Source: Cyanophora paradoxa CCMP329
Taxonomy: Eukaryota > Plantae > Glaucophyta
DNA: 64,000 nt
NCBI GenBank assembly: GCA_004431415.1
Contig: QPMI01000470.1
Coordinates: forward strand, 62,001 to 126,000
Direction: 5' to 3'
Shown: piece after piece, positions 42,330 through 62,786 of the stretch
How positions within the stretch are numbered: position 1 is the first letter of the stretch
How the letters are laid out: each line of letters begins with the position of its first letter
Notes under the pieces: generated by a model
Database searches by the model: none
The model's input: the letters and a program-made list of their open reading frames with translations, nothing else
What the model was told of the DNA's origin: nothing
Made by a program: the position numbers and the translations under genes

Positions 42330-44048
42330 TGGCCAGATCCCCGGGCCCGCGTGCACGTGCGCACCGCCGAGACGTCGGGTTGAACGAGGTTAGCCTCGAA
42401 TTCGAAGACGTCCAGGTCCAGCTCCAGCTCCAGCTCGGTCTCCTCCTGTGGGGCCGAGGCTCAGATTCAAGTGCAGGGGCGGGGACCCCGGACCCGGGAC
42501 TCGGGATTTAGAGGGGGCCCCGGCCCGCGGCGGCCGCGTACCTCGCCGGCGAGGGTCTGGTCGGGCTCGTCGAGGCGGCCGTCCGCCGGGGGACCCTCCG
42601 CCGGGGCAGTCCCCGCCTGGGGAATGGCGCTGCAGTACTTGAGCGCGAACTGGTAGAAGCCTTTCCCCGCGTTCGCAGTGCAGGTCCTGCGCGCGCGCAG
42701 GGCGCAGGGCGCAACTGATCATGATCGAGTACTAGATGTGATCATCGCATTACGCAAGCTCTATATCTGCAAGTGAATCCGGAGGCAGCGCATGCGCATG
42801 CGCACTGGTACGTGGGAGGGCCGGTCACGGAGAGCTGCGTCCCGGCAGTGCACGTGCTCGTCGAAAAACAGGAGCCGCAATAGGGGCTGTTGACGACGGG
42901 TGTCGGGTCCGAGAAGGGAATGAAAGAGCATCCAATGGAGGTCCCGTTGCCTCCTTGGAAACAATCCCTACGCGCATACAGGTTATCGAGAATTAAATTA
43001 CAATGAATTGTAAGCTTATCGTAGTATGATAAAACTTATGCAGATATATAAATCGCACGTTTGGCTGCCCTTGACGCCCAAGCTTGTCCCCTACGTGAGC
43101 AAAAAACGAAAGCGCGCGCGATGTGAGCTGTCTTATTATTATCGTCAAACGCCGTGACGAATGCGCAATCAGGGCTGCTGGGCTCTTACACTGCCGTCAG
43201 GGCCGGACCAGCACATGCCCGAAGTCTCGTTGACGATGACGGTCGTCAGCTTCGTCAGTGTGCCGTTCGCTCTCGCTATGGTGTCCTCGGCCGCGGTCGA
43301 AAGCTGCCTCGACACGTGCGACTTTCCGCCGACAGCAGCGTCGAAGCACTTCCTGCGGCACGCGGGCGAGTGTTCGCGACGAATGCACTTTAGAATCGGA
43401 AGATCAAATGCGTACTTGTAGTCTATAGTATCGCCCAAGGAAACCCCAGTGCCGTTGTAACCGTCGTAGCAAGTTCCCTGCGTACGTACACGGAGCAACC
43501 ATGTGTCAGCAGCTAGCGCTGCAGCTGCATACTGTGCACATGACGGCGAATTCGAAAATCGGGGGTTTGGACCGTCGGACTACCTTGGAGAACTGATTCT
43601 CGCAGGACCATCCGCCCATGTTCGTGTAAATTCCTTTCATGGCATCGTAAGTCTCAGCAAAAACTGCAGAGCCTCCCTTTGCCCAGCACTCGCTGCGCGC
43701 GCCGTAAATTAATTATCATAAATACCTCGAGATGCAGACGGAAATTCAGAAAGGCTCTTCGGCACACTCCCTGATGTCGACCGGGCCGAGGCTGGTCGCC
43801 ATGACACCATCGTACTCGGTGATACCGCACCTGTCGACGTCGCCAGAAATTGAGAATGAACAAAAGTGCTCGCAGATCATTGCAATTGGATGTCACAATC
43901 AAAGCCAGATGCAGATTATTAGCACAGTTCGCAAGCGCACAAAAATTGATGAGCTCACCCGAACTTGTCCCAGCACGTGAGGATTGGCTTGCTATCCCAG
44001 CTCGTATACGTAACGGTGCCGTGCGTCGTCATGGTGGATTCCGCGCAT
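42330..44048 (-). pseudogene. Cys-containing multi-exon host gene, 5'-truncated by the viral-type segment at ~44050
   Basis: Exons CAESTMTTHGTVTYTSWDSKPILTCWDKFG (then GTGAG donor), GDVDRCGITEYDG, GTCYDGYNGTG...MCWSGPDG and RTCTANAGKGFYQFALKYC. No start codon before the AT-rich junction. Confidence 0.45.
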
Positions 44049-44321
44049 GAACCATGAACCATTTTCATTGTCCCATCGTGCGCCGTATTGTTTCGCTTCT
44101 TCTTTTTCGCTGTAAGGAACCGTGATATATACAATTTGATCGATTCCTTTTACTTCCTCTTTTGTGAGTTGTTTATACTTTTTCAAAAGTTCGCTATCTT
44201 TTTTAGTAGTATACCAAAGGTGAGTATCCGGATCCCATCGACCACCCATTTGTTTAACTTCCTTACGATCCTCGTAGCGTGAGACAATATAATAGCGGGT
44301 TGCTTTTGGTTTGGGTTCCAT
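43992..44321 (-). CDS. Tandem DUF5710-like protein (viral/plasmid type); the last ~18 codons read into host sequence
   Basis: YIVSRYEDRKEVKQMGGRWDPDTHLWY and YITVPYSEKEEAKQYGARWDNENGSWF; AT-rich and intronless. Confidence 0.75.
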   Translation of the reverse strand: MEPKPKATRYYIVSRYEDRKEVKQMGGRWDPDTHLWYTTKKDSELLKKYKQLTKEEVKGIDQIVYITVPYSEKEEAKQYGARWDNENGSWFMRGIHHDDARHRYVYELG

Positions 44322-44972: not shown

Positions 44973-45256
44973 ACACATAGTAAAATGCGGAGTTTTAACC
45001 CTCGGCTTAATCTTAATTGATTTTGTTGATATATCTCGTATATTCTATTTCAATCAATCGATAATCTGTGTATATCTTATCGAATATTCATTTATTTCGA
45101 TTATTTTGTATTCTTTTCGATATTTTATCGTAAATTTCTCTTATTTTCCGATTAGTCTTACTGAGTTAATCGATAATCTGTATATATTTCCGAATAATAT
45201 AACTGAATCTCAATTAGATCTTGCCTCTGGTTAAAACTCCGCATTTTACTATGTGT
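44973..45256. repeat. Perfect 28-bp inverted repeat pair at the left end of the element
   Basis: acacatagtaaaatgcggagttttaacc (44973-45000) and ggttaaaactccgcattttactatgtgt (45229-45256); no TSD visible. Confidence 0.9.
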
Positions 45257-45497
45257 GATTGGTCTAAAAGTTAATTGATTTAATCGATATTATATTCATG
45301 TACTTTCTCGATTAAATGTAATTAAATTTAATTCATTTAATCGGAAACATATCGCTAAACTCGATTAAGATCCATAAAAGATTCATTTGTTAAATAAAAC
45401 AAATCGATCTCTTATTGAATTCAATCGTAATTATACATGAAATTGATATGTTTTTATCATGTTTTTATAAGTCTAAGGGGGGACCCTTAGGAATTTG

Positions 45498-45804
45498 GGT
45501 GTCACAGGTGTCACAGGTGTCACAGGTCAATCCCAAACTTTTGAGAGTTGATTTTTATATATATGAAAACTTTGGGATAGACCTGTGACACCTGTGAACA
45601 ACACCATTTATGGTAAGAGCCTCTTTTATATTGAAAAACTCAGTAACAATAAGTAAGAATTTTATCTATGTAATTCTACTTGAATAAACAAATGAAATAA
45701 TCGAGTGTCACAGGTGTCACAGGTCCATCCCAAACTTTTGAGAGTTCATTTTTATGCTATAGAAAACTTTGGGATAGACCTGTGACACCTGTGACACATA
45801 CCAT
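45498..45804. repeat. Two palindromic iteron arrays (GGTGTCACA)n - AT-rich spacer - (TGTGACACC)n
   Basis: Copies at 45498-45607 and 45705-45804. Confidence 0.9.
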
Positions 45805-46249
45805 ATTCAGTAAGGACCTCATATTTTGTGAAAATCTCAGTGTTAGTTGGTGTAGTTGATTCAAAAAATGCATTTTAAACTCTGATTCATTGTTATTTCC
45901 TGTGAAATTTGAGTCAACTCAACCCACTTAGTCAACCCTTGCATTGAATTCGTAACAAATTCCATATACTATTACTACTTTTACGATTAATATGAGTCAA
46001 CCTTGAGTCCACTTTAATATAAATATTATATAATAGGGGGAATCTAGGGGAGATGCTTACTAAATGCAGTGTCCGGGAAAATCTAAGATCCGGTTCGCGA
46101 AAGTAGCATTGTTGTATAGAGCATGCAAAGAGGATTCCGGCGATGGTCGCGGTTTTAATAGCTGATGAGTTGGTGAATAGTAACAGCAGTTTGTATGATT
46201 TTCTTGGATTTTTGGGTTCCGGAACCCAAACTTTACCCATTATCTATCC

Positions 46250-46356
46250 GTAACGCGTTACGCACGCGTTACGCACGCGTTACGCACGCGTTATGCACGC
46301 GTTATGCACGCGTTACGCATGCGTGACTCATGGGTTATGCATGCGTGACGTCACGT
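46250..46356. repeat. 11-bp CpG-rich tandem repeat (ACGCGTTACGC), about 9 units
   Basis: Directly visible; later units are degenerate. Confidence 0.9.
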
Positions 46357-46656
46357 CATATATGCATCATATATACACAAACCTCCGACATATAAACACT
46401 ATATATACACAAACCTCCGTTTTGCCGGTTGACCGAGAAAAAAATGTTTCGAAAAAATAGTAAAAAATATATATACATATACATTTTTATCGGCATCTTC
46501 AAACTGTCATATCTCATCACCAGATCATCAAAACGCAACGTTCTGCATAGCGCTGTGAAGCGCTTGATATGCTCTACAAGACTTTGTGTATATCATATGC
46601 ATATATGTATATCTGTCATACATATATTTGGAAAAAACTAGTTTTCGCCTAGCAAA

Positions 46657-48042
46657 CTAGCTAGTTTTGGTTCTTTCTCTTAGTGTTCTTTGAGGTTTAG
46701 GGGCTGTATATGACTCCTTAGTAGTCTGAAAGTCATTATACCATCTCTGGCTATTCACTTCTGAAAGTTTCTGTGTGCCTGCTATAGTGAGCTTTTTGAG
46801 TTCCCTATTAACTTTGCCAGTCTTCTCCTTTCTAGCCTCTATCAAAGGCTTATCTGGGACTTCATTAGCAGCTTCTATGCCCTCTCTTCTTATAGCAGCA
46901 TCAACCCTGGCTTCCTCTTTAGCTTGCTCTAAAGCATCTACTGTAGGGGTTTCCAGATACTCAACTGCATTCACAGGCAACAGCTCATGGAAAGCAAACC
47001 TGTTATCTATGATCTCTCCAGTGGGACTCTTTAGCTTAAACTTAAAGCCTTCTCTACTATTAACAGTGTAAACCATCCTAGACCAATTGTTACCCTGTTT
47101 AGCAAAGGGGTTCTTCTCTACTTTCACTCTAACAAACATGCCAGGCTGCATGGTATCAAGATAAGCTATTGATTTCTTGAATCTTTCATCTTCTAATCCC
47201 ACTATATACCTATAATGCTCCTCTGTAGTTTCACCTGGCTTCATCTTAGTAGCTGAGTGAACTGTATTATTGTAATTATACTCAATATCACCTAACACAT
47301 CAAAGAATCTAGCTGTATTATTGGCTATGCAGTAGTTTGTGATCAGTCTCTTAATCTGCTTGTTAAAGGCTTCAATTCGACCTTGGCTTCTGTGGTCAGC
47401 AGTTCCACTCACTTGGTGTTCTATGTATTTACTAGATAAATACTCCTGGAATATTCGATTTTGGAATTCACTCCCAGCATCTGATTGAACTTTTACTATG
47501 GGTCTTGCTACTCTCATTTCAAGCTGTTTAAATGCAGCTAATGTAGTGAGAGCTGATTTATCTCTGATAGGTATAATATACCCAGTTCTCAGTGTTGATT
47601 CCATTGCAGTCATAAAAGTATCATAGCCATTGTTTTGTTTCTTATAAGCTGGGAAAAAGAGCAAATCAATCACATAGGTATCAAGGGGTTGCCTGATTGG
47701 GACCATGGGATCTCTCTTTCTAGATATAGCAGGTGCATTGATCTGAACTACCTCTTGCTTTTTATAGAACTCTTGCAACTGCTTATAGGATTCTTCAGGT
47801 AACTCAGCCCTCATAGCTTGAAGCCCTTTGTAACCAGTTCTCACATCATAGAATCTCTTGGCAATCTTGCTAGTTTCTTTCACTGCAATAGCAACTGGGA
47901 TCTCCACAGGGACAAGCTCTTTCATCTCAGACTTTTTGACAATTCGAGATTCCCCCTTTTCCTCCTTTGGAACTGTGATAGGCAATAGGTTACCTTGTAG
48001 TTGATCAGTGGTTCTCCTTACTATTCTTCCAGTTGCTGGCAT
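46657..48042 (-). CDS. Retroviral-like (rve) DDE integrase, Polinton type
   Basis: YVIDLLFF (D), VQSDAGSEF (D), GRIEAFNKQIK (E), YNNTVHSATKMKP; no chromodomain visible. Confidence 0.93.
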   Translation of the reverse strand: MPATGRIVRRTTDQLQGNLLPITVPKEEKGESRIVKKSEMKELVPVEIPVAIAVKETSKIAKRFYDVRTGYKGLQAMRAELPEESYKQLQEFYKKQEVVQINAPAISRKRDPMVPIRQPLDTYVIDLLFFPAYKKQNNGYDTFMTAMESTLRTGYIIPIRDKSALTTLAAFKQLEMRVARPIVKVQSDAGSEFQNRIFQEYLSSKYIEHQVSGTADHRSQGRIEAFNKQIKRLITNYCIANNTARFFDVLGDIEYNYNNTVHSATKMKPGETTEEHYRYIVGLEDERFKKSIAYLDTMQPGMFVRVKVEKNPFAKQGNNWSRMVYTVNSREGFKFKLKSPTGEIIDNRFAFHELLPVNAVEYLETPTVDALEQAKEEARVDAAIRREGIEAANEVPDKPLIEARKEKTGKVNRELKKLTIAGTQKLSEVNSQRWYNDFQTTKESYTAPKPQRTLRERTKTS

Positions 48043-48045
48043 CTC

Positions 48046-51000
48046 TTAATTAAAAGGAACAGAATTAATACCATCTGGTAAGATGTATCTCTTTGCATCA
48101 AAGCAGTTTAGGGCAACCCTTCTACTCACAGTGTCTATTATTGTGTGATCTGCCCTTCTCTTCTGCTTTGCAGTCACAGTCTTGCTGATACCTGCAAATA
48201 AACACTGCTTAAAATCATTAAATTGGAGTTCCTCAGTGGAAGTCCCAGATAGCTTACTTCTCTCAATCTCAGCTGTTCTGAAACTGTAAACTTTGGCTCT
48301 CAGACCTACATACTCCAGGATTGCAGAACCTGGCATCTCATTTTTGTATTTACCTGGGGTCATTCTGTTAGATCCCCCTAGGTCCAAGGCATAAGATATA
48401 TTCTCTATATCTTTTGCAATGGTCTTAGATTCGATATATAGACAAAAGGAATCAGTATCATGGAATAGTAACTTGGCTTTGGACCACTGGGACCTTACAG
48501 TATCATAGAAGAACTTGTAGTTATGCAGTTTGGCTGCATCCAAAACATAAGCCCCAATTGCAACAGGCTTATCTAGCTTCACATGCTTTGTGTAAAACTC
48601 AAAGGCAACTGCCCTTTCACTTATGGGACTTGTTGATTTCACTAAAGGAGAGGCTGCATATTTCATAAATAGCTTCTCAGTGTTGGCAATCTTAACCACA
48701 GATCGACCTCTACATGATTCAATGCATTTCCCATAGATTGAATTATTCATGAGCTTATAGAAATCAGCCTCGAATTTATTCACTGCTTTCCTTCTCATCT
48801 CAGTGTTCAGCTCAATATATGATTTCATTACAGGAGCCACAGTGAATGATAGGACCCTGTGGACTTTTCTCAATTTCATCCCTTTGTCCAACAGATACTG
48901 TAGGAGAGGCTCAGAAATCACATAGTTTGTCACAGAACCAAAGGTTGCAGTTAGCTTAGGGGTTTTATCAAGCTCTTCTCCTGAGAGATCCAATAGGTTC
49001 TTTTGATATTGTGATAATTCTGCATATTCTACTATTTTCTTGTTAATAATTAGGGGGAAATCACTGTGATCCAGAAACAGCCTAATTGGGTAATCCAGAT
49101 CAACTTCCAGGAAACTGGATCTGTTATCTTGTGGGTTGAATTCGGTCTCCCATCTAAAATCACCAACTGGAATTGGCTGACTCAAACAGTAGCCATACAA
49201 GTTGTTAGCATCAAACAGCATTATATGGGAGTTCTCACCATCAGCCTCAGCATACCTACAAGGCATTGTTGCAAAGCCACCCCTGATTCCCTTCTCAACA
49301 AATTCGTATTGCTCTACATCACTTATAAGCTCTATTTTTGCCTTGGTGGTCCTAAACATAGCATCCCAAGATAGCCCAGGTGCAGATACATAATGAACTG
49401 GGTCAAGCCCATATACTGAGTGTGAAAGCCTTCTGAAGGCTTGGAATTTGTTCATTAACTCATCTACATCAGCAGCCCCAAAATCCATAAAATTGCTTGC
49501 ATCAATGAACTTGTAAAGACCCCACTGCAATGAAAGGTATTGATCAAAGTTTTTCGAGAGGATTTCGATTCGCTTTTTATCACCCATGCCTGCTATTTTT
49601 CTGAAAATGAATGTCCCACAGTCATCCATTTGGTCAACAACAACTGCAACTTTGGTTTGCTTTGAGATTCTCCTATGGAGATTGCAGTTTCTGCATGCAG
49701 GAGCAATATAATGACCTGTGTGATGATCATGATCCCTGCATTTGAAGTTCTCCTTGGTGAACCTCTCACTGCAAAGGTAACAGTGTTTGGTAGCTCTGTA
49801 AATTGCTTTCTGCTCATCTGTGAGTTCATTCATGGGAATATTGGTAAACAGAAAATCGATCAGTTCTCTTGCTTTGGATTCCAAGCATTCAAAGAGACCT
49901 CCCATTGGATCCTGACCCTCAAATCGAAACTCCTGAACATCTGCCCCAGTGACTATTCTAATGTTGACTGCTGAGACTTCCCTCTTGGATTTCGATGCAT
50001 CTATGGGGATGCTTCTATGTTCAATCTTGCAGTAAACCACAACAGGAAGCCAGACAGTTTTCCTAAGGTTTTTCAGTCCAAACTCTATGGTGGTCTCAGG
50101 CTTAGGAGTGATTCCCTTTGAGAGTCTCCAATCAATGCATCTGTTTGAGTCCACATGAGCAGTGAGTTTAGCCTCAGACCTGAATCGAGATAAACATGTG
50201 TCACAGTAGTGTAACTTTTGATCTTTGGTTTTATCAAGGGCAACTCTGAGAAGTCTTGAAAGGGACATAATAGTTATATAATGCCCATTCCCTTCATCAT
50301 CATGAATGAGCATAAGATTAATCTTTTGCTTTCTACCTGGGTTGCTGGATTGATGTAGGGGATATATAACATCTCGATCCATTCCAAATATGTTTATGCT
50401 GATGCCTGCATTTTGAGATTCGAATTTATCAATGATTTCAGCATCACAGGGAACAGGGAATGAGATGTTATCGAAATTGAGAGCCAGAGGATTATAAGCG
50501 ATTGCTGAGTATTTCCATTTGCGATATTGTGTAAGCTCACTTCTCTTGTGGGAATTCACATCTTTCCTATGGATCCATGCCAAAATGGCATTTTCAAAGC
50601 AAGAATCATCAATATTTCGAATATTCACTGTGGCTCTCTTGGCTGCAATTGATTCTGGTGTTTTAACATAGCAACCACCAGTTGGGGCATAACTCATAAT
50701 AGCAACTCTGAGCATTTCGATTCTCTCCAATCGATAGCTATCAACCACATTCATCTGCTCCTGACACATTTGGGCTGCTTTATTCAGCTCAGTTCGAATA
50801 TTTCTCGATTTGGTTAATACAAAATAATCACTGTAAATGTATTTCGATATCCAAACCTGTGGATTGCTGACTTTAACGAACTTGCAGATAAACGATAAGC
50901 GAACTTTGATTGCCCTGAATTGATCTAGACTGTCTCTTAAACGTTTTGGTAGAGAGGTTGCAATTCTATCTAAATATTCAATCACATCAACAACAACTTC

Positions 51001-51291
51001 CCTTCTGGCTCTGTATGTGAGCCAGCGATATAATTCATTCATTGCTGTACCATCTTCTGCCTCTGGTTCTATTTGCCTTAGGCGATCCAGTTCATCAAGA
51101 GTGTCAACTTTATCATAGAGGTTATTGGCTTTTCTGGTTAATTTTGCTAAAGTGGGTCTCCCCCTTGAAATAAATCCGATTTCCCGGTCATATTCAGCCT
51201 CTGTGATTTCATGGGCTGCATACAGTGTTCCAAGTAATCCCATGAGTTCCCATTTCTTCTCTCTAATGAGTCTGTTGCTAATTCGGGGCAT
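48046..51291 (-). CDS. polB: Protein-primed family B DNA polymerase with N-terminal extension, Zn finger and endonuclease VII-like insertion
   Basis: FDANNLYG (motif A), KLMNNSIYGK (motif B), FHDTDS (motif C), GIRGG, GLRAKVYS; CYLC...RDHDHHTG...ACRNCNL (EndoVII-like); NIDDSCF..AIL and GHY in the N-terminal part. Confidence 0.95.
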   Translation of the reverse strand: MPRISNRLIREKKWELMGLLGTLYAAHEITEAEYDREIGFISRGRPTLAKLTRKANNLYDKVDTLDELDRLRQIEPEAEDGTAMNELYRWLTYRARREVVVDVIEYLDRIATSLPKRLRDSLDQFRAIKVRLSFICKFVKVSNPQVWISKYIYSDYFVLTKSRNIRTELNKAAQMCQEQMNVVDSYRLERIEMLRVAIMSYAPTGGCYVKTPESIAAKRATVNIRNIDDSCFENAILAWIHRKDVNSHKRSELTQYRKWKYSAIAYNPLALNFDNISFPVPCDAEIIDKFESQNAGISINIFGMDRDVIYPLHQSSNPGRKQKINLMLIHDDEGNGHYITIMSLSRLLRVALDKTKDQKLHYCDTCLSRFRSEAKLTAHVDSNRCIDWRLSKGITPKPETTIEFGLKNLRKTVWLPVVVYCKIEHRSIPIDASKSKREVSAVNIRIVTGADVQEFRFEGQDPMGGLFECLESKARELIDFLFTNIPMNELTDEQKAIYRATKHCYLCSERFTKENFKCRDHDHHTGHYIAPACRNCNLHRRISKQTKVAVVVDQMDDCGTFIFRKIAGMGDKKRIEILSKNFDQYLSLQWGLYKFIDASNFMDFGAADVDELMNKFQAFRRLSHSVYGLDPVHYVSAPGLSWDAMFRTTKAKIELISDVEQYEFVEKGIRGGFATMPCRYAEADGENSHIMLFDANNLYGYCLSQPIPVGDFRWETEFNPQDNRSSFLEVDLDYPIRLFLDHSDFPLIINKKIVEYAELSQYQKNLLDLSGEELDKTPKLTATFGSVTNYVISEPLLQYLLDKGMKLRKVHRVLSFTVAPVMKSYIELNTEMRRKAVNKFEADFYKLMNNSIYGKCIESCRGRSVVKIANTEKLFMKYAASPLVKSTSPISERAVAFEFYTKHVKLDKPVAIGAYVLDAAKLHNYKFFYDTVRSQWSKAKLLFHDTDSFCLYIESKTIAKDIENISYALDLGGSNRMTPGKYKNEMPGSAILEYVGLRAKVYSFRTAEIERSKLSGTSTEELQFNDFKQCLFAGISKTVTAKQKRRADHTIIDTVSRRVALNCFDAKRYILPDGINSVPFN

Positions 51292-51403
51292 AGTTCCTAA
51301 CTTGTTCCTACTAAAAGGGGAGGTTTTAAATGGGGATAGTCCGAACGCAAATATACTTAAAGGAATTTTTATATTGTATATATATAGAAGTCAAAAAGCA
51401 AGA

Positions 51404-51721
51404 ATGAATGCGGAAAGTCAAAGAACGCTTAGTATTTCAGCAATCATGAAAAGCATTCGAGAAAGAAATGACACATGTGAAAACTCAGAATATAAACGAA
51501 TTCTATGCAGTCTATGTAAATGTGATGAGACTAGCTATGATCAGTTTGTATGTGATCAATGCTTCAAGACAGTCTGTATAGGATGCATGAAACAGCAAGA
51601 GGAAATAGTCGGGAATACAAAATGCCCATTCTGTAGAAACACATTACAGTATCCAGAGTTCACCTTGTTCAACATTCTGGACTACAATGCATGTGATGTT
51701 GAAACAATTACATTTGGCTGA
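51404..51721 (+). CDS. RING-like zinc-finger protein
   Basis: CSLC...CDQCFKTVCIGC...CPFCR. The likely start is the ATG at 51404, after a TATATA-containing motif. Confidence 0.75.
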   Translation: MNAESQRTLSISAIMKSIRERNDTCENSEYKRILCSLCKCDETSYDQFVCDQCFKTVCIGCMKQQEEIVGNTKCPFCRNTLQYPEFTLFNILDYNACDVETITFG

Positions 51722-51777
51722 GCAACAAAAAATGATTTAAAGAATTCTCTATATATATTAAGAGAGACAGAGGAAAA

Positions 51778-52032
51778 ATGCCACTCAGTGAAGCCCAGAA
51801 GAGAGCTATGAAGAGGTACCAGCAAACTGAAAAAGGTAAGGCTCAAATCAAAAAGTTTAACGAAAAAATAGCCACACAGCTTAGAGATCTATATCAAACC
51901 GATGATACCTATAGAGCCATGAAAATAGCAAGTTCATGTCAGCGAAAGTATGCAGCCAATGCAGTCTGCTTTGTCAAGTATTTGTATGATGTCCCTTACT
52001 CAAACAGAGGGAGAAAATCGAAACATGTTTAA
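51778..52032 (+). CDS. Small basic helical protein
   Basis: 84-aa ORF MPLSEAQKRAMKRYQQTEKGK, with the same upstream motif as its neighbours. Confidence 0.7.
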   Translation: MPLSEAQKRAMKRYQQTEKGKAQIKKFNEKIATQLRDLYQTDDTYRAMKIASSCQRKYAANAVCFVKYLYDVPYSNRGRKSKHV

Positions 52033-52244
52033 ATTATTTTTCCCAGCATATTACTAGGCTGGGATATGCTGTTTATTCGCTGAAATAACCATTCATCCTT
52101 TTTATATCTAAACCACTCGATAAGTCGTGTGGAAATATTTCGTAGGGATACTTTCTCGATTTCCAACAAAAAATGATTGGGGGACCCAAAACTACTTAAA
52201 GAAAAATCTTCTATATATATAAAAGGGACCCCCAATCGCTGAAA

Positions 52245-54572
52245 ATGAACGCCAAACAGACTAAATCGCTCAAATCGCTCGCTAACTGGCTTCGTTCTGA
52301 TGAGGAACTCGCCAAAAACATGATTATCCCAGTGAAACCTGACAGCAAAGACCCTGTTTTCAAGCATAAGGGAGGTGCTTGGTCCTGGGAAAAGTATGAG
52401 GAAGCGCTGGCAACTAATCAGTATGTATCTTGGGGCATTCTGCTCTCAGACAACATGATGGTTATTGACTTTGATGATGAGGAGAACTTTGAGAAATTCC
52501 GGGATATGTTTCCTGATGACTTTGATGCCAATCAGCCCATGGCAAAAACTAAAAAAGGCTATCATGTCTACTTTAAACGACCTGAGGAGTTCACTAAACT
52601 CAAAATCACCGATAAGGCTCCAGGCTTTAAAGGCTTTGAAAAGGTTGACCTGAAAACAATCACTGGAACTGGAACTTCTGGATTGATCAATGTGTGTCCC
52701 AGTGTCAACAAGTCTTGGGTAATCTCCCCATGGGATGATACCTGTGATTTCAATGAGCCTACTGATGACTTCAAAAAGTGGATTATAGATAATTACATCT
52801 ATAAGAGTGAGTATACTGCTAATGCTACCTCATATGATGAACTGGAAAACAATATTATCAAAGAGCTGGTGGATATGGGATTTATGCATCCCAATATAAT
52901 CTCTAAAACTGAACTTGGCTTTAACTTTGATGCTGCTAACAAGGGACTCAATTGCCCATGCTGCAATGGTTCACATGAATCGAATAACTGGTATGTTATG
53001 AAAGCTAAAGGAGATGATAACAAATACATTGTGTCAAGCTACAGTGGAAATTGCAAAAAACGATTCATCTGCATTGGAATGCAATCTGATATCTTTAATC
53101 TTATAGATAAATCCGCTGGTTCTGGTGGCGCTCATTATGATGTGAGTTTAGTATGCAAAGAGGTTCTTAAACACACTTGGAGATACTCCAAAAAGTCATG
53201 GTTCAAACTCAATACTGATACTGGGATTTGGGAGCTTGATGACACAAACCTAAAGATTTACCTAGATATAAGCCGTCTTGTTGTCCCCCAATACCTTGGG
53301 AGGGCTGTGCATTATAGTCAAAGAGCTTTAAAGGATGAGGAAAACAAAGCAACTTTCGAAGAAAAATCCAAAACATTGATGACCATTGCCAAAAATCTTA
53401 AACAATCAGGATTTCGCAAATCCCTTCTGACTGACTTGGTCCCACTGCTGAATGATGATGAATTCTTTGAGAAGATTGACACTGTACCATATGTGATTGG
53501 ATTCGAAAATGGTGTATTTGATCTGACCACTATGACTTTCAGAAAGGGTAAACTTGAAGATATGGTGAGCAAGACTGTGGGTTATGACTATACTGAAAAT
53601 GTAGACCCCAAGAAAATAGAGCATCTCAATCAGATTTATAAAGAGATTGTGGATGATCCAGCAGAGCGAAAGTATCTTCTGGCATCCATTGCAATTGCTC
53701 TCAGTGGATCAACTAAATCCCAGAAGTTCTATATGTGGACTGGTGCTGGTGCTAATGGGAAATCACTTGTTCAGGAATACTGCAAACAAATATCTGGTCG
53801 TTATTACAGCCCTCTCGAAATATCCTATTGGACTAAGCCTAAAAAGAACTCATCAGAGGCTACTCCTGAACTTGCCAAACTCCTTGGAAAGCGACTTGTA
53901 TTCAGTAATGAGGCTGAAGATGGTGATAAACTGCAGATCTCCAAGATTAAGGAGGTCACAGGTGGAAATGAAATGACTGTGAGAGCCTTGTTCAAAGACC
54001 CAGTTATCCTTACCCCAATGTTTCAGGTCTACATTACAACTAATGACAATTTGACTATAAATAAACCAGACTTTGCAATTCAAAGAAGGCTTTCCTATCA
54101 GAGATTCAATAATATATTCAGAGAGAAGCCAGAAGCAGGTCAGAAGAAAGCTGATCCAACTCTGTTCACACTACTTCACAATGATGATGAGTATAAGATG
54201 GCTCACATGAAGATATTACTGGATATGTGGAAGAACAAAGAGGTTGAAGAGATCTTAAGGGATCCCCCTCAATCCATTATTGAACAAGGGATAAACTTTA
54301 TAACTGAAAATGATAAGATTGGTGAATGGCTTCGAGATAATTTCGAGGTTACACATAATGCTAACGACTTTGTTTCCAGTGATATCATTTACAGATCATA
54401 CAAAAGTGTTGATGATAAAGTTGAATGTGTATCTGTTATGAAAAGAGTAAGGGAAATCTTCAATGTTAAATCAGAGGTTAAACGAATTCATGGAACCAGA
54501 GCAAGGGGCTACATTGGACTTCGAAAGATAACAAGGGTTCAAGAAGACAATGGAGAGGATGTTGAATATTAA
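52245..54572 (+). CDS. AEP primase-polymerase fused to a D5-like superfamily 3 helicase
   Basis: VIDFDD and KTKKGYHVYF (AEP motifs), CPCCNGSH Zn site, FENGVFDL (D5_N), GAGANGKS (Walker A), FSNEAE (Walker B), ITTND (motif C), and a winged-helix-like C-terminus ending RGYIGL. Confidence 0.93.
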   Translation: MNAKQTKSLKSLANWLRSDEELAKNMIIPVKPDSKDPVFKHKGGAWSWEKYEEALATNQYVSWGILLSDNMMVIDFDDEENFEKFRDMFPDDFDANQPMAKTKKGYHVYFKRPEEFTKLKITDKAPGFKGFEKVDLKTITGTGTSGLINVCPSVNKSWVISPWDDTCDFNEPTDDFKKWIIDNYIYKSEYTANATSYDELENNIIKELVDMGFMHPNIISKTELGFNFDAANKGLNCPCCNGSHESNNWYVMKAKGDDNKYIVSSYSGNCKKRFICIGMQSDIFNLIDKSAGSGGAHYDVSLVCKEVLKHTWRYSKKSWFKLNTDTGIWELDDTNLKIYLDISRLVVPQYLGRAVHYSQRALKDEENKATFEEKSKTLMTIAKNLKQSGFRKSLLTDLVPLLNDDEFFEKIDTVPYVIGFENGVFDLTTMTFRKGKLEDMVSKTVGYDYTENVDPKKIEHLNQIYKEIVDDPAERKYLLASIAIALSGSTKSQKFYMWTGAGANGKSLVQEYCKQISGRYYSPLEISYWTKPKKNSSEATPELAKLLGKRLVFSNEAEDGDKLQISKIKEVTGGNEMTVRALFKDPVILTPMFQVYITTNDNLTINKPDFAIQRRLSYQRFNNIFREKPEAGQKKADPTLFTLLHNDDEYKMAHMKILLDMWKNKEVEEILRDPPQSIIEQGINFITENDKIGEWLRDNFEVTHNANDFVSSDIIYRSYKSVDDKVECVSVMKRVREIFNVKSEVKRIHGTRARGYIGLRKITRVQEDNGEDVEY

Positions 54573-54625
54573 ACAAAACGATTAATGATTGATTTGTATA
54601 TGTAATTTTTATAGCCTTACTGGAA

Positions 54626-54735
54626 ATGGTGTTGTTCACAGGTGTCACAGGTCCATCCCAGGGAAAGTCAAACATAAAAAATGATTTTGAAAATCGGTGG
54701 GATAGACCTGTGACACCTGTGACACCTGTGACACC
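54626..54735. promoter_or_regulatory. Candidate replication origin: third palindromic iteron array, inverted relative to 45498-45607
   Basis: atggtgttgttcacaggtgtcacaggtccatccca...tgggatagacctgtgacacctgtgacacctgtgacacc starts ~54 bp after the helicase stop. The origin function is inferred. Confidence 0.65.
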
Positions 54736-54802
54736 GATCGAAAAAGACCAAAATTTGACAAGAATACTTAAGGCTTACTTGATTGTGTATAGTGAAGACA
54801 AA

Positions 54803-55024
54803 ATGGCAAAGACTCTTGATGAGATGACCATGCCTGAGTTAGATAAATGCATAAAGCATGGAGATATAGGGGCATATATCGAAATGTCACAGAGATTAAA
54901 AGGTTACAATATGTATGCAACAAAACCAAAGAGAAATAGATCAGTAAACATTCACATAACTGTTTCAGTGTCTGAGAATGCAAACAAAAAACAACAAAAG
55001 CATATTTACAAAAGTTATCTGTGA
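54803..55024 (+). CDS. Small hypothetical viral protein
   Basis: MAKTLDEMTMPELDK; ACTTAAGG motif upstream. The longer annotated ORF merely runs through the iteron array. Confidence 0.5.
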   Translation: MAKTLDEMTMPELDKCIKHGDIGAYIEMSQRLKGYNMYATKPKRNRSVNIHITVSVSENANKKQQKHIYKSYL

Positions 55025-55111
55025 CTTGATTGCAAGTATAAAGCCAATTCCTTTGTATATATTTTTATAGCTGCCTCAGTAGCATACTGAGACCGCTTTT
55101 TCTCAATTATC

Positions 55112-55357
55112 TTATAGACCTGGGGGTCCATTGCTACTTTCAGTTGGCAAATAATATTTAATCGGTCTTCCTCTGGGTCTCTGCTCCTCTTTTTGGGCTT
55201 TTCTGCGATAATAGGATGCCAGGGCTTGCTGCTTTTTATACTCTCTATATTCTGGGTCCTCTCTATATCGTTTCTGCATTGCTAGAATGTGTCTAATGGA
55301 ACCCTCAGTAACAGGTTCATCACTGGTAAACTCGATTAAACTAATAGTATCCTCCAT
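55112..55357 (-). CDS. Small basic protein with AT-hook-like motif
   Basis: RYREDPEYREYKKQQALASYYRRK...RPRGRPIKY. Confidence 0.7.
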   Translation of the reverse strand: MEDTISLIEFTSDEPVTEGSIRHILAMQKRYREDPEYREYKKQQALASYYRRKAQKEEQRPRGRPIKYYLPTESSNGPPGL

Positions 55358-55622
55358 TTATATTCCCAGAGAAAACGTTTTCTGCTGACAGAGAACTTCT
55401 CCTTGGATACTCCTGTTGCTCCTGTTGCTCATATGTATACTCTGTGGGGTCTGCTGGCATTGACTCCACAGAAACTGTAGACCTCCTTCTCTCTCTTGCT
55501 TCTGAGGCATTATCCTCATTATCTGACATCTCAAACTCCACTGTTGTCTCACAACATCCACTGTGGCAATTGCTCACCACATGCAGACTGAACATCTCGA
55601 AGAACTTTCGTATTATGTCCAT
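55341..55622 (-). CDS. Small hypothetical viral protein
   Basis: 93-aa ORF with SNCHSGCC; has the TTATCT upstream motif. Confidence 0.6.
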   Translation of the reverse strand: MDIIRKFFEMFSLHVVSNCHSGCCETTVEFEMSDNEDNASEARERRRSTVSVESMPADPTEYTYEQQEQQEYPRRSSLSAENVFSGNINGGYY

Positions 55623-55644
55623 ATCTCTAATAAAACAGAGATAA

Positions 55645-56379
55645 TTAAAGCCAAACTCGTCTTTTATATACTGCTGGGGCTACTCCCTTTTCTACTTCAG
55701 CTTTGGTGGCACCAGGTTCAATGGTTCCCTTCTGGGTCTTTGTTTTCATTTCATCTACTGCCTGCTCATCAATTTGGTTCTCTTTCTTAGCAATAAACTG
55801 TTTATCTGGGACACCAGTAATACCCATTTTATAGACTTCCTTTCGAAGCATCTCCTTTAGCTTGGCTCTCTCTTTCTTCTCAGTAACATACTGCTCCAAG
55901 GCACTTGATTTGGCTTCCAGATCTTTGAGTTTAGCAGTCATCTCATCCCATTGAGCCTTGGGAATTCGATGAATATTTTGAGTGGGAGCAGTCTTGTATG
56001 TGACTTCACCAGCCATAGACTGAATTACCTTGTCTGATTCCTTACTAAGACCTTCACCTTTGCGAGCCAGTGAAAGATCTTGCAAGCCTAGACCTTTATC
56101 ATCAGCAGCACCAATAATTCGCCTGGCACCCTCAGCAACAGCTTTCATTTTTGAGGCTTCTGGTGAGATGTTGAGTTGGTCACTGGTTGAAGCCTGTGGG
56201 GCTTTGTCATCGACTGATTCCTCATAGGCAGCATTAAGAGGGTCTTCTTCTTGTTGTGAGGGCTTCACCTCATTCATACCATTGAATTTCAGTGGTTCAG
56301 TGTTAATGGATCCATTGTTTCCACCACCTGAATAGCCAACAGCCCCAGCTGGAATCCCTATCTTTCGTTTGGGAGGCAT
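55645..56379 (-). CDS. Hypothetical coiled-coil viral protein (possible core protein)
   Basis: 244-aa intact ORF starting with NLS-like MPPKRK. Confidence 0.75.
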   Translation of the reverse strand: MPPKRKIGIPAGAVGYSGGGNNGSINTEPLKFNGMNEVKPSQQEEDPLNAAYEESVDDKAPQASTSDQLNISPEASKMKAVAEGARRIIGAADDKGLGLQDLSLARKGEGLSKESDKVIQSMAGEVTYKTAPTQNIHRIPKAQWDEMTAKLKDLEAKSSALEQYVTEKKERAKLKEMLRKEVYKMGITGVPDKQFIAKKENQIDEQAVDEMKTKTQKGTIEPGATKAEVEKGVAPAVYKRRVWL

Positions 56380-56407
56380 TGTATCTTTATTAGAATGAGA
56401 GATAATT

Positions 56408-57201
56408 TTATAAACCGCGTTTATATCGCATCAATTTATTGCTATGGACTTGGCTTTTCACATCTTTGGGGGCTTCCTCTTTTTCTGGTGGTTTCAGTTC
56501 ATCCTCTTTCTTTTTTGGCTTCCTGTGGAAGCGAGGAAAATCGAAATCTCCAACTAAATCGGCTTTATCAACATAGTAGCCCACATTATATTTGAAAGAT
56601 GTATAAACGAGGAACTGGTATGAGTGAACATACTCTTCAAACAGTTTATAGAAGTCTTCTTTTCGAGGAAAAGTCGAAAACTCCTCTGCAAATGCTTCCA
56701 GCTCTTTTTGATTGCTTGCACAAACCATAATTACTATATCACTATTGCAGCGAATAACACTTGCGACCTTTCTTAATTTTTGGGAAATAGTTATAATTGA
56801 TATATTGACATGTCTGCCACGAACATAAAGCATTCCCACTGTTTTATCTCGACTGAGATCCAGCTGGTCATTTTCTATCATATCCTCTAAAATCACCAGC
56901 ATATGGTTAAGTTCTTCTCCTTTCTCCCTTTTTGCCTCTCTTTCTTTTATAATTTTCGACATGTATTGGGGATCCCATGCACCCAGTTGAACAGTAGCAG
57001 CTTTGTCCCAAAAATGTGAAAATGAGGTAGCCGATATAATAAGTGTTGTATCAATCTTTTTGGCATCATGCAGCTGTTTCAAATAATATTTTACAGCTTC
57101 AGTTTTTCCGCATCCACTTTTTCCTAGTATGAGTAGTCGAAAAGGGGTTCTATCATTTCACCAGCATTGAATTCCTCCAGTTCAGAACTTGGTATAGGCA
57201 T
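56408..57201 (-). pseudogene. A32/FtsK-like genome-packaging ATPase with a 1-nt frameshift near the 5' end
   Basis: PFRLLILGKSGCGKT (Walker A, ~57105-57147, in the frame of ORF 56408-57082), LVILED (Walker B), RGRHVNISIITISQ, IRCN. The ATG at 57201 is 119 nt from 57082 and therefore out of frame. Confidence 0.85.
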
Positions 57202-57257
57202 TGTGTATCTTTCTATAAAGAAACAGATAAAAATAATGCAAGGTGACTGAATATGGT

Positions 57258-57989
57258 TTACAGGTTAGAAAGGAATCTTTTAATGCAGCCCTCAATATCA
57301 GTTTCGGTGTATGGGATTCTCAGCAGTTTAATGTTGTTAGCTTCACAGTATCGATTTTTTATTCCATCATTAATTTGAACCTGTTTAAATTGCGCTTCAC
57401 CATTATCAGAGCCAAACCACTTTCTTGGTTTGAAATGTTGAATACCATCATATTCTATTGCAATTCGAAGAGAATCAATGTAGAAATCGAACCTTAATGG
57501 AAACTTATTTCTACAGTCTTTGAACATATGTTGTTGTGTATACCCCACTCCAATTAAGTCCAACACTTTGCACACCTCTTCCTCACCTTTTGAAGATCTA
57601 CAAAATGGGCAACCAGTATTTCGAATATGAATGATTGGGGGTTGCATGAACTCTTTGTTACAAGAGTTGCATCTTATACAAACTGGTGTGTGAGATTTCA
57701 CATATTCTACTTTATTATAACAATATTTGTCTCCATGTGTTTTTCTTGATTGCTCTATAAAGGTTTCCAGCTCTTTTCTGCGTTCATTTCCCAACCGCTG
57801 AAAACTACATTTCTTACAGCTTGACCCTCTTAGATGGTGATCCACCCGCTGTTCAAATATTGAACTGCAAGTCAGACAAGTAATGAGAACTTTATCCTTG
57901 CATTTCGTAAATTCAACCTTCGAATAATCGAATTTACCATTATGCTTGGCATTTGCACGATCTACAAACTCAGTAATTGTGATGGGCAT
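57258..57989 (-). CDS. Zn-ribbon-repeat PD-(D/E)xK (Vsr/DUF559-like) endonuclease, homing-endonuclease type
   Basis: Two F...H..K[FY].Y.KVE[FY]....V.I.C..C...F.Q....H....C..C repeats, then SKGEEEV...LRFDFYI...IAIEYDGIQHF...D..KN.YC....IKLLRIPY. Confidence 0.85.
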   Translation of the reverse strand: MPITITEFVDRANAKHNGKFDYSKVEFTKCKDKVLITCLTCSSIFEQRVDHHLRGSSCKKCSFQRLGNERRKELETFIEQSRKTHGDKYCYNKVEYVKSHTPVCIRCNSCNKEFMQPPIIHIRNTGCPFCRSSKGEEEVCKVLDLIGVGYTQQHMFKDCRNKFPLRFDFYIDSLRIAIEYDGIQHFKPRKWFGSDNGEAQFKQVQINDGIKNRYCEANNIKLLRIPYTETDIEGCIKRFLSNL

Positions 57990-58021
57990 TTGATTTTTAA
58001 ATGTTTTCAGGCGAAGCCTCT

Positions 58022-59687
58022 TCAGGCGAAGCCTCTTTCTCAAACCCAAAAACCGACGATCTAAATTCCTTTTTTAACCTTTTTTTCCACTCAAGATCCC
58101 CCCTGCTAAATAATTCCCGTGTCGCACTCCCTCGAGGCAGAATTAATAATTCTGCCTCGACACGGACGCGATTGCTGCTAGTCACACACCCACACGAACC
58201 CCCACAGACCTCTCTAGATCCATTTTAGCGTCGTGGCTGCCCAAAGACGACCGCTCCCCCGTAGGCATCCCGCGAAAATCGAATTTCCCTCTGGATCAAT
58301 TCCGGTACTTAACCTCCGACAAATGCAGTCCGAGTCCGAAGGTGGGACCCGGTCCCGCCCGGTCCCGCGACGAAATCGCGCCAGGGACGCCCCAGAACGA
58401 TACAGAATGACGCGCGAGGGCGAGCGCATCGCCGCAAGCTCGATTTTGGGCGCCGTCGACGCTCCAGTGCGAAGAGTCGGCCGAAAATTTGATCCGGCCG
58501 GTTCCGGCCGGTCCCGCGACGCGCGCAATCGATGCGTACTGGCGCGCATAGACATACCAGGGCCCGCGCACCCCCGAAATCCGCTTTTCGAACCCGGAGC
58601 AGCGCAGGAAGGTACCGGACAGCAAAAATCCGATCCTGGACAGACCCGGATATCTTTCCGCGCGCCCACGCCGCGGCGCATGCGCGGAACGATAGCATAA
58701 CCATTTAAGATGTAGAGAAAGACTTCCGCACGGTGTCTAAATGCACCAGGTCACGAGCACCCAGCCGACCCCGAAAATTCGATCCTTGATAGACCTGAAC
58801 ATCTTTCCGCGCGCCCTCGCATTCTCGCGCATGCGCATCGTCGCAATATTCATTTGAGATTTTATCAAAGTTTTCCACAAGCTTTGAAGACGCGAAAGAG
58901 CACGAGAACCCAGCCGACGGCAAAAATTCGATCCTGCACACGCCTGGACATCTTTCCGCGCGCCCACGCCACGGCGCATGCGCGGAACAATAGCATAAGC
59001 ATTTGAGATGTAGATCAAGCGTTCCGCGCGCTTTGCAGATGCGCCGGGCCGCGGGGACCCAGCCGACCCCGAAAATTCGATCCTTGAGGGAACTGAACCG
59101 CGTTCCGCGCGCCCTCGCGTCCTCATGCATGGGCATCGCTATAATATTCATTTGAGAGCTTTTCAAAGCGTAATGCAAGCCCCAAGGGCGCGACAGGGCG
59201 CGAGAATTCAGCCGACCCCGAAAATTCGATCCTGCATGGACCTGCACGTCTTTCCGCGCGCCCTCGCCTCCGCAGCCCCGCACATCGATGCTATATGCAT
59301 TCGAGATTGTGTTTAAGCGATTCGCAAGCTCTGTGCATGCGCCTGGCCGCGAGAACCTCGCCCTCCCGGCCTCCCCCCAACAATACATTAATATTAAATA
59401 AATCTCCTATCAATCTGCTCCACCAGTTAAAAGCAAGAGTTACCGGTTCAACTCCTCCCCTAGTTCATTATATATTCGCTCTCCTCATTACATTGCTCCC
59501 TGGCCAGCGAGCTCTCCCTCGAGCTGGCTATAGCGGGCCAGCCCATTGCCCCAGTGCCAAGCCGGCGAAACTTTTGAAGCCCGGCCATGCAACTGGGCGG
59601 GGCTGCAGCTGCCCGCCTACTGTGACAGCCGCGAGGGCGTCCGCGAGGCTTCGCCGTACTTAGTGCTCCGCAGGAGCACGGATCTTG
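58022..59687 (+). mobile_element. Same family, inner copy B nested in copy A
   Basis: TCAGGCGAAGCCTC...GAGGCTTCGCC (59645-59655), hairpin 59663-59679, ending CTTG at 59687; inserted between T58021 and T59688. Confidence 0.8.
58620..59340. repeat. ~149-bp internal tandem repeats (about 5 units; also at 60275-61000)
   Basis: aaaattcgatcc...atctttccgcgcgccc recurs at ~58625, 58774, 58922, 59072 and 59221. Confidence 0.85.
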
Positions 59688-61365
59688 TTCTCAAACCCAA
59701 AAACCGACGATCTAAATTCCTTTTTTAACCTTTTTTTCCACTCGAGATCCCCCCTGCTAAATAATTTCCGTGTCGCACTCCCTCGAGGCAGAATTATTAA
59801 TTCTGCCTCGACACGGACGCGATTGCCGCTAGTCACACAGCCACCCGAACCCCCACAGACCTCTCTAGATCCATTTTTAGCGTCCTGGCTTCCCTAAGAC
59901 GACCGCTCCCCCGTGGGCGTCCCGCGAATATCGAATTTCCCTCTGGATCAATTCCGGTACTTAACCTCCGACAAACGCAGTCCGAGTCAGAAGGTGGGAC
60001 CCGGTCCCGCCCGGTCCCGCGACGAAATCGCGCCAGGGACGCCCCAGAACGATACGGAGTGACGCGCGAGGGCGAGCGCATCGCCGCAAGCTCGATTTCG
60101 GGCGCCGTCGACGCTCCAGTGCGAAGACTTGGCCGAAAATTTGATCCGGCCGGTTCCGCCCGGTCCCGCGACGCGCGCAATCGATGCGTACTGGCGCGCA
60201 TAGACATAGCAAGGTCTGCGTACTCCAGAAATCCGCTTTTCGGAGGCCGAACAGTGCAGGAAGGTACCCGATGGCAAAAATTCGATCCGGATCCTGCACG
60301 GGCCCGGACATCTTTCCGCGCGCCCACGCTGCGGCGCATGCGCGGAGCAATAACATAAGCATTCGAGATGTAGACAAAGCATTCCGCACGCTTTGCGTAT
60401 GCGCGGGGCCGCGGGGACCCAGCCCACCCCGAAAATTCGATCCTCTACAGACCTGCACATCTTTCCGCGCGCCCTCGCATCCTCGCGCATGCGCATCGCT
60501 ACAATATTCATTTGAGATTTTATCAAAGCCTTCGACAAGCTTCGAACACGCCGAAGACCACGAGAACCCAGCCGACGGCAAAAATTCGATCCTGCACGGA
60601 CCCGGACATCTTTCTGCGCGCCCACGCCGCGGCACATGCGCGGGACAATAGCATATGCATGTGAGATGTAGACAAAGCCTTCCGCATGCTTTACAGATGC
60701 GCCGGGCCGCGAGAACCCAGCCAACCCCGAAAGTTCGATCTTGCACGGACCTGCGCGCACAGCTTTCCGCATGCACGCCCTCGCATGCTCACGCATGGGC
60801 ATTGCTACAGTATTCATTTGAGCTCTTTGTAAAGCTTTGCGCGAGCTCTGCGGACGGCGGCAATCCAGCCGACGCAAAACTTCGATCCTGGCCACGCCTG
60901 CACATCTTTCCGCGCGCCCTCGCCTCCGCAGACCTGCACATCGATGCTATATGCGTTCGAGATTCTTTTTAAGCGATTCGCAAGCTCTGTGCATGCGCCT
61001 GGCCGCGAGAACCTCGCCCCTGCCGGGCCTCCTTCCCAACAATATTATATAATTAATCTCCTCTCAAACTAGATCGATCTGCTCCACTCTTTAATTATTT
61101 CCTCGCTCAGTACATAATGGCATTAATATTACTCTAGCTAGCCGACCAGCGTTAGCTGGACTGGCCGTCAGCCAGCCAGCTTCTAGCCAGAAAGCTGTTC
61201 GCGATCGGCCAGGCCGCTGGCCAGTGCCCTATATATAGGCCTACTGTGACAGCCGCGAGGGCGTCCGCGAGGCTTCGCCGTACTTAGTGCTCCGCAGGAG
61301 CACGGATCTTGTCAAAAATAAATAATCACTTTTTCCTTAAATGCCTTACGATATATCGTAACAAT

Positions 61366-62733: not shown

Positions 62734-62786
62734 TATATTCTCTTTTATTATACTGCAACATAAAAAATCTACCAATGATCCTTAAT

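Follow-up and report, generated by a model that had tools for sequence, protein, structure and literature searches.

The Polinton-like virus (PLV) integrated in a 64,000-nucleotide stretch of Cyanophora paradoxa DNA (contig QPMI01000470.1; hereafter the window) is depleted of two sets of short words: CG dinucleotides, except those flanked by a 5′ T or a 3′ A, and a group of short palindromic words that contain no CG. The element starts at approximately 44973 and extends beyond 64000, its right end lying past the window. Judging from word counts, the two layers may have two authors, a host CG methylase that is weak on TCG/CGA and the restriction–modification enzymes of a co-infecting giant virus, a reading to which we assign a probability of roughly 0.5.

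CG depletion that spares TCG and CGA

The stretch under study contains 116 CGs, 45 of them in TCGA; 100 have a 5′ T or a 3′ A, compared with 51% expected by chance (p=3e-15). At 46657–57250 the observed/expected (o/e) counts fell from 45/38 (1.20) for TCGA through 55/173 (0.32) for half sites to 16/198 (0.08) for CGs with neither a 5′ T nor a 3′ A (VCGB), with GpC control ratios of 0.86–1.78. By word the loss was graded (TCGA 1.24, GCGA 0.65, ACGA 0.29, CCGA 0.28, GCGC 0.19, CCGC 0.17, CCGG 0.14, ACGC 0.09, ACGG 0.05 and ACGT 0.04), and it struck palindromic and non-palindromic words equally hard. The bias was strand-symmetric, and a 5′ T and a 3′ A were each protective.

An earlier note on this DNA, written from the letters alone, had drawn attention to the pattern, and counting bore out most of its particulars. 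The integrase gene carries three CGs in 1386 bp (CpG o/e 0.06), all TCGA, at 47378, 47456 and 47945; in the gene of the protein-primed family B DNA polymerase (pPolB), 30 of 32 CGs are T-/-A flanked, 18 of them as TCGA; and host DNA (CpG o/e 1.15 and 1.09) and a long interspersed nuclear element (LINE; 1.01) are not CG-poor. The weaker trend that the note saw in the capsid genes, which lie at 61366–63818 and thus outside the stretch it addressed, is present at half sites (20/25.7 in the major capsid protein (MCP) gene) but not at VCGB (3/32.2).

The bias persisted under codon control, which the same note had named as the test that could refute it. At silent positions of 13 open reading frames (ORFs), the CG form was kept in 35/142 cases for TCGA, 17/173 for TCGB, 15/282 for VCGA and 12/426 for VCGB (TCGA versus VCGB, Fisher 1e-13), with a baseline C use of 0.42–0.51. 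TCGA itself is therefore partly lost, to about 0.55 of baseline, and is favoured approximately ninefold over VCGB. Across 1000 synonymous shuffles the VCGB minimum was 94; the observed count was 21. Non-coding DNA of the element carries the same bias (TCGA 14/7.0, half sites 20/27.5, VCGB 6/27).

A second layer: palindromes without CG

A scan of 4-mers revealed further losses, with GGCC at 0 versus 18.7 expected, GTAC at 3 versus 21.6 and GCAC/GTGC at 22 versus 62.8. When 289 motifs were tested against 120 shuffles that held amino acids, codon usage and every CG fixed, the top motifs were GYRC (28/71.7), GGCC (0/16.9), GTAC (3/20.7) and CTNNAG (31/61.8), each under all 120 shuffles; GKMC (46/82.1), also among the top motifs, overlaps GGCC, GTAC and GCAC/GTGC. 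Loss occurred across codon boundaries (hyphens) in different frames, namely GGC-C 0/30, G-GCC 0/43, GTA-C 1/41, G-TAC 1/29, GCA-C 2/41 and G-CAC 0/15, and on both strands (sense-strand GCAC 3/18.3, GTGC 18/27.6). Valine codons followed by C illustrate how the sites disappeared: GTR was used in 4/41 cases versus 68/131 elsewhere, the residue pairs before C were kept (Val 41 versus 44 expected, Ala 41 versus 43), and codons were shifted to pyrimidine-ending forms. Replacing GTR by pyrimidine-ending valine codons requires transversions rather than C-to-T changes, and the deamination product ATA-C was not raised (2/43). At the visible left end (44973–46656; the right end is beyond the window), GGCC is absent, GTAC occurs once and GCAC occurs five times, within 46001–46656; GGTGC/GCACC is tolerated in the element.

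On the evidence of these counts, the loss of non-CG palindromes has the pattern of restriction-site avoidance. In C. paradoxa, non-CG methylation is at the level of non-conversion in the consulted parts of PMC12344493; because of this, and because ATA-C is not raised, host CG methylation cannot have produced the palindrome layer. Comparison with known enzyme specificities yielded no named enzyme that matches GYRC while tolerating GGTGC/GCACC. A CviJI-type specificity (RGCY) was rejected as the cause of the GGCC loss, AGCT being reduced merely to 64 versus 84 and AGCC/GGCT being enriched, and so was an ApoI-type RAATTY specificity, of which 18 sites are left (AAWTT 31/51.5; A-runs are low as well). 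Avoidance of ATA-C itself was set aside as chance or a codon-pair effect, the word being low in one frame only and ATAC standing at 46/51 overall. Host DNA at 1–43900 has a composition of its own, with TCGA enriched about twofold and GTAC 2.7-fold; for GTAC this is the mirror image of the virus.

The two layers are separable in environmental relatives

We collected 100 related-polymerase loci, 20 from IMG/VR, which was every one detected there, and 80 from 9 of 64 metagenome-set parts, the best among 584; their flanks may include non-viral DNA. The pPolB of the element is 29–40% identical to these relatives and 47% identical to its nearest database match. In the silent-site test of 96 sequences, the window included, six had p below 1e-4, and only the window and one locus, L033 (1–5295), kept VCGB below 0.1 of baseline. 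L033 shows the CG layer at silent sites (TCGA 15/50, VCGB 6/161), with near-total loss of CCG/CGG (CCGA 1/26, CCGC 0/17, ACGG 0/26), and lacks the palindrome losses (GGCC 4/7, GTAC 17/14, GCAC 24/26). The CG and palindrome layers are thus separable. In a midpoint-rooted FastTree phylogeny of pPolB, with 95 sequences after removal of 14 short ones, L033 stands at the median distance from the window, among animal Polinton-type sequences.

Palindrome avoidance is common among these loci: strong avoidance of at least one palindrome was found in 20/73 loci of 4 kb or more and in 14/33 of 10 kb or more. Strong 4-mer losses occurred in 22/921 palindromic versus 0/8257 non-palindromic tests. The avoided words were GATC (8 loci), GTNAC (7), CATG, CTNAG, CTAG, GTNNAC, GANTC, GTAC and GGCC. 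Two palindrome-avoiding loci, L009 and L019, carry Sputnik-type capsids (Pfam Sputnik_MCP) and are therefore typed virophages; L019 (GATC 0/45, GGCC 0/10, GTAC 1/13) has the GGCC and GTAC losses in common with the window. Among the 70 ORFs of 12 loci (11 avoiding loci and L033), L019 supplied the single adenine methylase. Three to ten palindromes each are avoided in L062 (1–13669; CTAG 0/33, CGCG 0/11, TGNCA 1/40, CCNGG 0/11), L048 (1–11762), L047 (1–15474) and L019 (1–16695), which are candidates for pairing with giant-virus methylomes.

A host methylase and a giant virus as candidate agents

If the two agents proposed above are responsible, the integrated copy would be CG-methylated, and methylated CGs would be costly, both through silencing and because the protein-primed polymerase displaces a single strand, on which C-to-T changes would escape repair. 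The winning variants would be those in which a CG had been lost or shifted into a T-/-A flank. Whenever the PLV replicated alongside a giant virus, any GGCC, GYRC and CTNNAG sites left unprotected would be cut, and silent changes would purge them.

The host half of this reading was anticipated by the earlier note, which had proposed a host CG methyltransferase that disfavours TCGA. C. paradoxa indeed has DNMT1 and DNMT3 and 32% methylated CG, and its repeats and virus-derived genes are methylated (PMC12344493, in the parts consulted). The proposal missed the palindromes, and a methylase-only reading is incomplete because loss of GGCC, GYRC and CTNNAG lies beyond any CG methylase. Published flank preferences give a partial match, in that mouse DNMT3A disfavours CpGpA (PMC7797059, as far as the excerpts consulted go); for C. 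paradoxa, methylation by CG flank was not found in the consulted text sections and supplement legends of PMC12344493. On the viral side, AaV, a giant algal virus, is described in the consulted part of PMC12700378 as methylating CTNNAG, CTAG, CTNAG, GTNNAC and TGNNCA.

Several observations weigh against the two-agent reading. In the mouse DNMT1 table (PMC7381644), 7/16 NTCGAN words fall in the top (>1) bin, and four of these, TTCGAA, TTCGAT, ATCGAA and ATCGAT, belong to the words best retained by the virus; an apparent match to mouse DNMT1 was discarded, as five example words seemed to fit and the full 256-word table of that source gave no support. The dislike of DNMT3A for +1 purines, as described in the excerpts, would spare CCGG too, yet CCGG is depleted. 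The LINE (1.01), a satellite-like repeat inserted in the virus (1.28) and a piece encoding DUF5710 (1.43) are undepleted, though most repeats are reported to be methylated, so that residence in the host genome is insufficient for CG loss. No nameable enzyme fits an element that keeps five GCACs at 46001–46656 and tolerates GGTGC/GCACC, and no giant virus, nuclease or methylase with such targets was identified in this analysis. Finally, the parts consulted of two papers report that chlorovirus restriction enzymes do not cause mutual exclusion (PMC7019647) and that one virophage methylome gave an anti-virophage role no support (PMC7253447).

The strongest competitor, which we nevertheless hold to be unlikely, is that a single giant-virus partner with many methylases and nucleases, acting through several CG-containing target sites, a CG methylase or a methyl-directed nuclease, caused both layers and that the host methylase is irrelevant. 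Such a partner is already indicated by the palindrome layer, it would account for CG loss in the virus but not in host repeats, and chlorovirus nucleases recognise 2–4-bp sites according to the consulted portion of PMC7019647. Three features speak against it: the CG loss is graded and reaches non-palindromic words and, in part, TCGA; the terminal block of the element retains CCGG, ACGT and CGCG; and in L033 the CG layer occurs although GGCC, GTAC and GCAC were not lost.

Mutation and selection in the loss of CG

A purely passive footprint, in which methylated CGs deaminate at flank-dependent rates in proteins under purifying selection and no evasion is involved, has somewhat poorer prospects still. 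It agrees with a TpG/CpA o/e of 1.24 in the element and with a 1.54-fold excess, at four-fold sites, of T preceding G, a value close to the 1.69 that conversion of all lost Cs to T would give. However, 43 of 66 control loci, those without CG loss, share the T-before-G excess (median 1.52), and this test is therefore not diagnostic. The loss of GYRC, moreover, requires transversions and left no ATA-C product.

The silent base preceding an existing CG is C in 8/101 cases, and T precedes 26/35 CGB but only 32/161 AGR arginine codons (p=1e-9), a skew that four control loci lack (46/121 versus 124/352, p=0.58). Comparison with one homologue (identity 47% or 60%) gave 47 conserved arginines, residues at which deamination products should be purged; one of them lies in VCGB, and 12/13 CGB codons are T-preceded. 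This choice of flank suggests a selective component in the CG loss. Part of the skew could be survivorship of sites that mutate slowly, because a residue conserved in a single homologue need not be essential. The earlier note had concluded from intact ORFs that the loss happened under selection; the arginine flanks favour a selective component, survivorship tempers that conclusion, and not all ORFs of this copy are intact, the packaging ATPase gene being in two frames near its 5′ end. The 27 copy variants in the element, taken from 40 of about 1400, formed no new CG; as only 6 were A>G or T>C, of which 1.5 would be expected to form one, this carries no information on selection.

The GYRC loss could in principle arise because viral genes, which have no introns, steer clear of words that resemble host splice donors or the core of a host transcription-factor site, rather than of a nuclease, an explanation we regard as improbable. 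Among host words after AG-GT, GTGC ranks first (31) and GTAC joint third (19), and GTAC is enriched in the host (167 versus 62), as this explanation would have it. But the antisense form GCAC is avoided more than GTGC, donor-like GGTGC, GTAAG and GTGAG are not avoided, and the losses of GGCC and CTNNAG are left unexplained. A codon artefact, with in-frame CGA protected because its C-to-T change creates a stop, as the earlier note had cautioned, is contradicted as the sole cause and has next to no standing, for although CGA is the commonest CGN codon (44/79) and the overall TCGA o/e (1.24) overstates the sparing at silent sites (0.54), the bias withstands codon control and three shuffle nulls and shows at silent sites as well as in non-coding DNA.

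Gene content and extent of the element

GC content is 0.39–0.41 in the element and 0.63 in the surrounding host DNA, which agrees with the 67.6% GC given for the C. paradoxa genome in the part of PMC6704402 consulted. Element depth summed over contigs is in the thousands versus 17 for one flank contig, and this contrast, which is not a copy number, makes the PLV family multi-copy. The features are as follows.

44973–46000: left end, AT-rich and non-coding; TCGA 10/3, VCGB 2/10; boundary inferred
46001–46656: CG-rich block that lacks the bias; VCGB 32/13; CCGG five, ACGT three and CGCG eight times
46657–48042, minus strand: rve-type integrase, 461 aa; Pfam rve E=1.4e-4; GGCC 0, GTAC 0
48046–51291, minus strand: protein-primed family B DNA polymerase, 1081 aa; Pfam DNA_pol_B_2 E=1.5e-14
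51404–52032, plus strand: two small ORFs without Pfam match, one Cys-rich and RING-like (by eye), one of 84 aa
52245–54572, plus strand: primase-helicase, 775 aa (Pfam Prim-Pol, D5_N, DUF5906); VCGB 6/42.6
54803–56379: four small ORFs of unassigned function (73, 81, 93 and 244 aa); VCGB 1 versus 33.6 expected in total
56408–57202, minus strand: A32-like packaging ATPase; Pfam Pox_A32 E=2.9e-8
57258–57989, minus strand: optional zinc-finger/PD-(D/E)XK-like nuclease ORF; Pfam DUF4379, weak PADLOC match
58000–61330: CG-rich repeat of 149-bp units inserted in the virus; CpG o/e 1.28; GGCC 24, GTAC 10
61366–62733, minus strand: MCP, 455 aa; Atlas clusters and a Cyanophora homologue; VCGB 3/32
62787–63818, minus strand: 343-aa ORF, presumed minor capsid protein from gene position, no Pfam match; VCGB 1/20

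At the left end, contig depth at 44973–46000 rises abruptly from about 250 to over 7000, and the same block holds a 41-nt inverted repeat (44973–45013/45216–45256) and repeats of 9-bp units. The 9-bp-unit motif, arranged as inverted pairs round a short spacer, occurs twice in 45493–45815 and once in 54615–54735, after the primase-helicase, and is possibly a replication origin or a binding site. The exempt block at 46001–46656, with GCAC five times, no GGCC or GTAC, an 11-bp tandem repeat at 46242–46351 and a depth below that of its flanks, may be a protein-bound, unmethylated island.

The rve match of the integrase (22.5 bits) lies under the curated cut-off of 32.6. The pPolB gene (TCGA 18/11.7, VCGB 2/64, one GCAC/GTGC) had 341 homologues. 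In this copy the Walker A region of the packaging ATPase is out of frame with the initial codons, through decay or an assembly error. The nuclease-like ORF has a weaker bias (VCGB 4/11) and has acquired it only in part; contig joints 57250>61353 and 57254>61388 indicate that some copies skip both this ORF and the 149-bp-unit repeat. That repeat stands outside the biased sequence and serves as an internal control. It is high-copy and has two related 1.65-kb blocks, a palindrome of 29 nt and an exact repeat of 74 nt (59615–59688, 61239–61312). It may represent a satellite, or else a non-autonomous element targeting the virus.

The sole homologue found for the MCP is a C. paradoxa protein, 60% identical, which by itself makes Cyanophora or a relative the probable host. 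A search with an ORF from the flanking host DNA returned no homologue, and none of 10 window proteins had an exact match in the protein collection. Its nearest Atlas clusters are viral (0.97–0.98; Capsid_N in 12–18% of members), a lead-level match of low recognition value, and a Pfam scan gave no match, Sputnik_MCP included, unlike L009 and L019. No close relatives by MCP, integrase or primase were present in the viral contig set, nor by MCP in metagenome contigs. The Pfam scan detected no cysteine protease among 14 element-region ORFs, the right end lying outside the window; a PADLOC-type scan of 11 element ORFs returned no defence system of note; and the two kinds of scan together gave no methylase among the visible ORFs. 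Directly left of the virus, an AT-rich patch holds a viral-looking 109-aa DUF5710 ORF (43992–44321; CpG o/e 1.43), probably a piece of another element. Farther left, an AT-rich tandem repeat of short units lies within host DNA at 3110–3305.

Implications and comparison with known systems

It is possible, though on balance doubtful, that the word usage of an endogenous PLV records its enemies, here a glaucophyte CG methylase blind to TCGA and a giant-virus repertoire that includes GGCC, a new GYRC-type specificity and CTNNAG. If so, the set of missing words could link an orphan PLV or virophage to its giant-virus host, and the key would be testable, as the partner giant virus would be expected to carry methylases or nucleases that act on those words. 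A restriction-type footprint common to a provirus and typed virophages would be indirect evidence of replication beside a giant virus; at stake are the dependence of PLVs on giant viruses and the identity of those viruses. Sparing of TCGA leads to a specific and measurable prediction for the flank profile of a methylome of a kind already sequenced, and the recurrence of this layer in the unrelated L033 may point to a general property of some eukaryotic methylases.

The element resembles Polinton-like viruses and adintovirus-type Polintons in its pPolB, rve integrase, A32 ATPase, jelly-roll-type capsid and many copies in a protist genome, and differs from these in the distance of its pPolB from the nearest database match and in the lack of a protease in the visible part.

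Like viruses and transposons depleted of CpG through host 5-methylcytosine, it is an integrating virus with strong CG loss and TpG/CpA gain, in a host where CG methylation and silencing of viral inserts are probable. Unlike in those systems, T-/-A flanks are the ones spared, on either strand, and words differ over a roughly 30-fold range, no published profile that we compared fits, and host repeats of the same window are undepleted. Flank-biased methylation is on record in Amoebidium, with CGC/GCG at 70% versus 20% (PMC11244446, in the portion consulted).

Bacteriophages avoid restriction-site palindromes, and the virus is like them in that short palindromes were purged by silent change in several frames and on both strands. 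Unlike bacteriophages, it is an endogenous eukaryotic virus; we know of no restriction system of the eukaryotic host's own, and the restriction would likely come from a third party, a giant virus. One chlorovirus enzyme cuts GTAC. The parts of the literature consulted place restriction–modification systems in chloroviruses and clade A marseilleviruses (PMC7019647, PMC7253447), the same class of target is avoided here, and CTNNAG is a measured AaV methylation motif (PMC12700378). Dam methylases of PLVs have been proposed to shield against giant-virus nucleases (PMC12220804, in the section consulted); in contrast to such methylase-protected PLVs, the element has no methylase in its visible part and is apparently protected by site loss. 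In the literature searched, mostly open-access, we found no paper on site avoidance in virophages or PLVs, nor CpG depletion combined with site avoidance in an endogenous algal virus. CpG depletion and phage-like site avoidance are each known in kind; their combination in an endogenous algal virus would be the new part.

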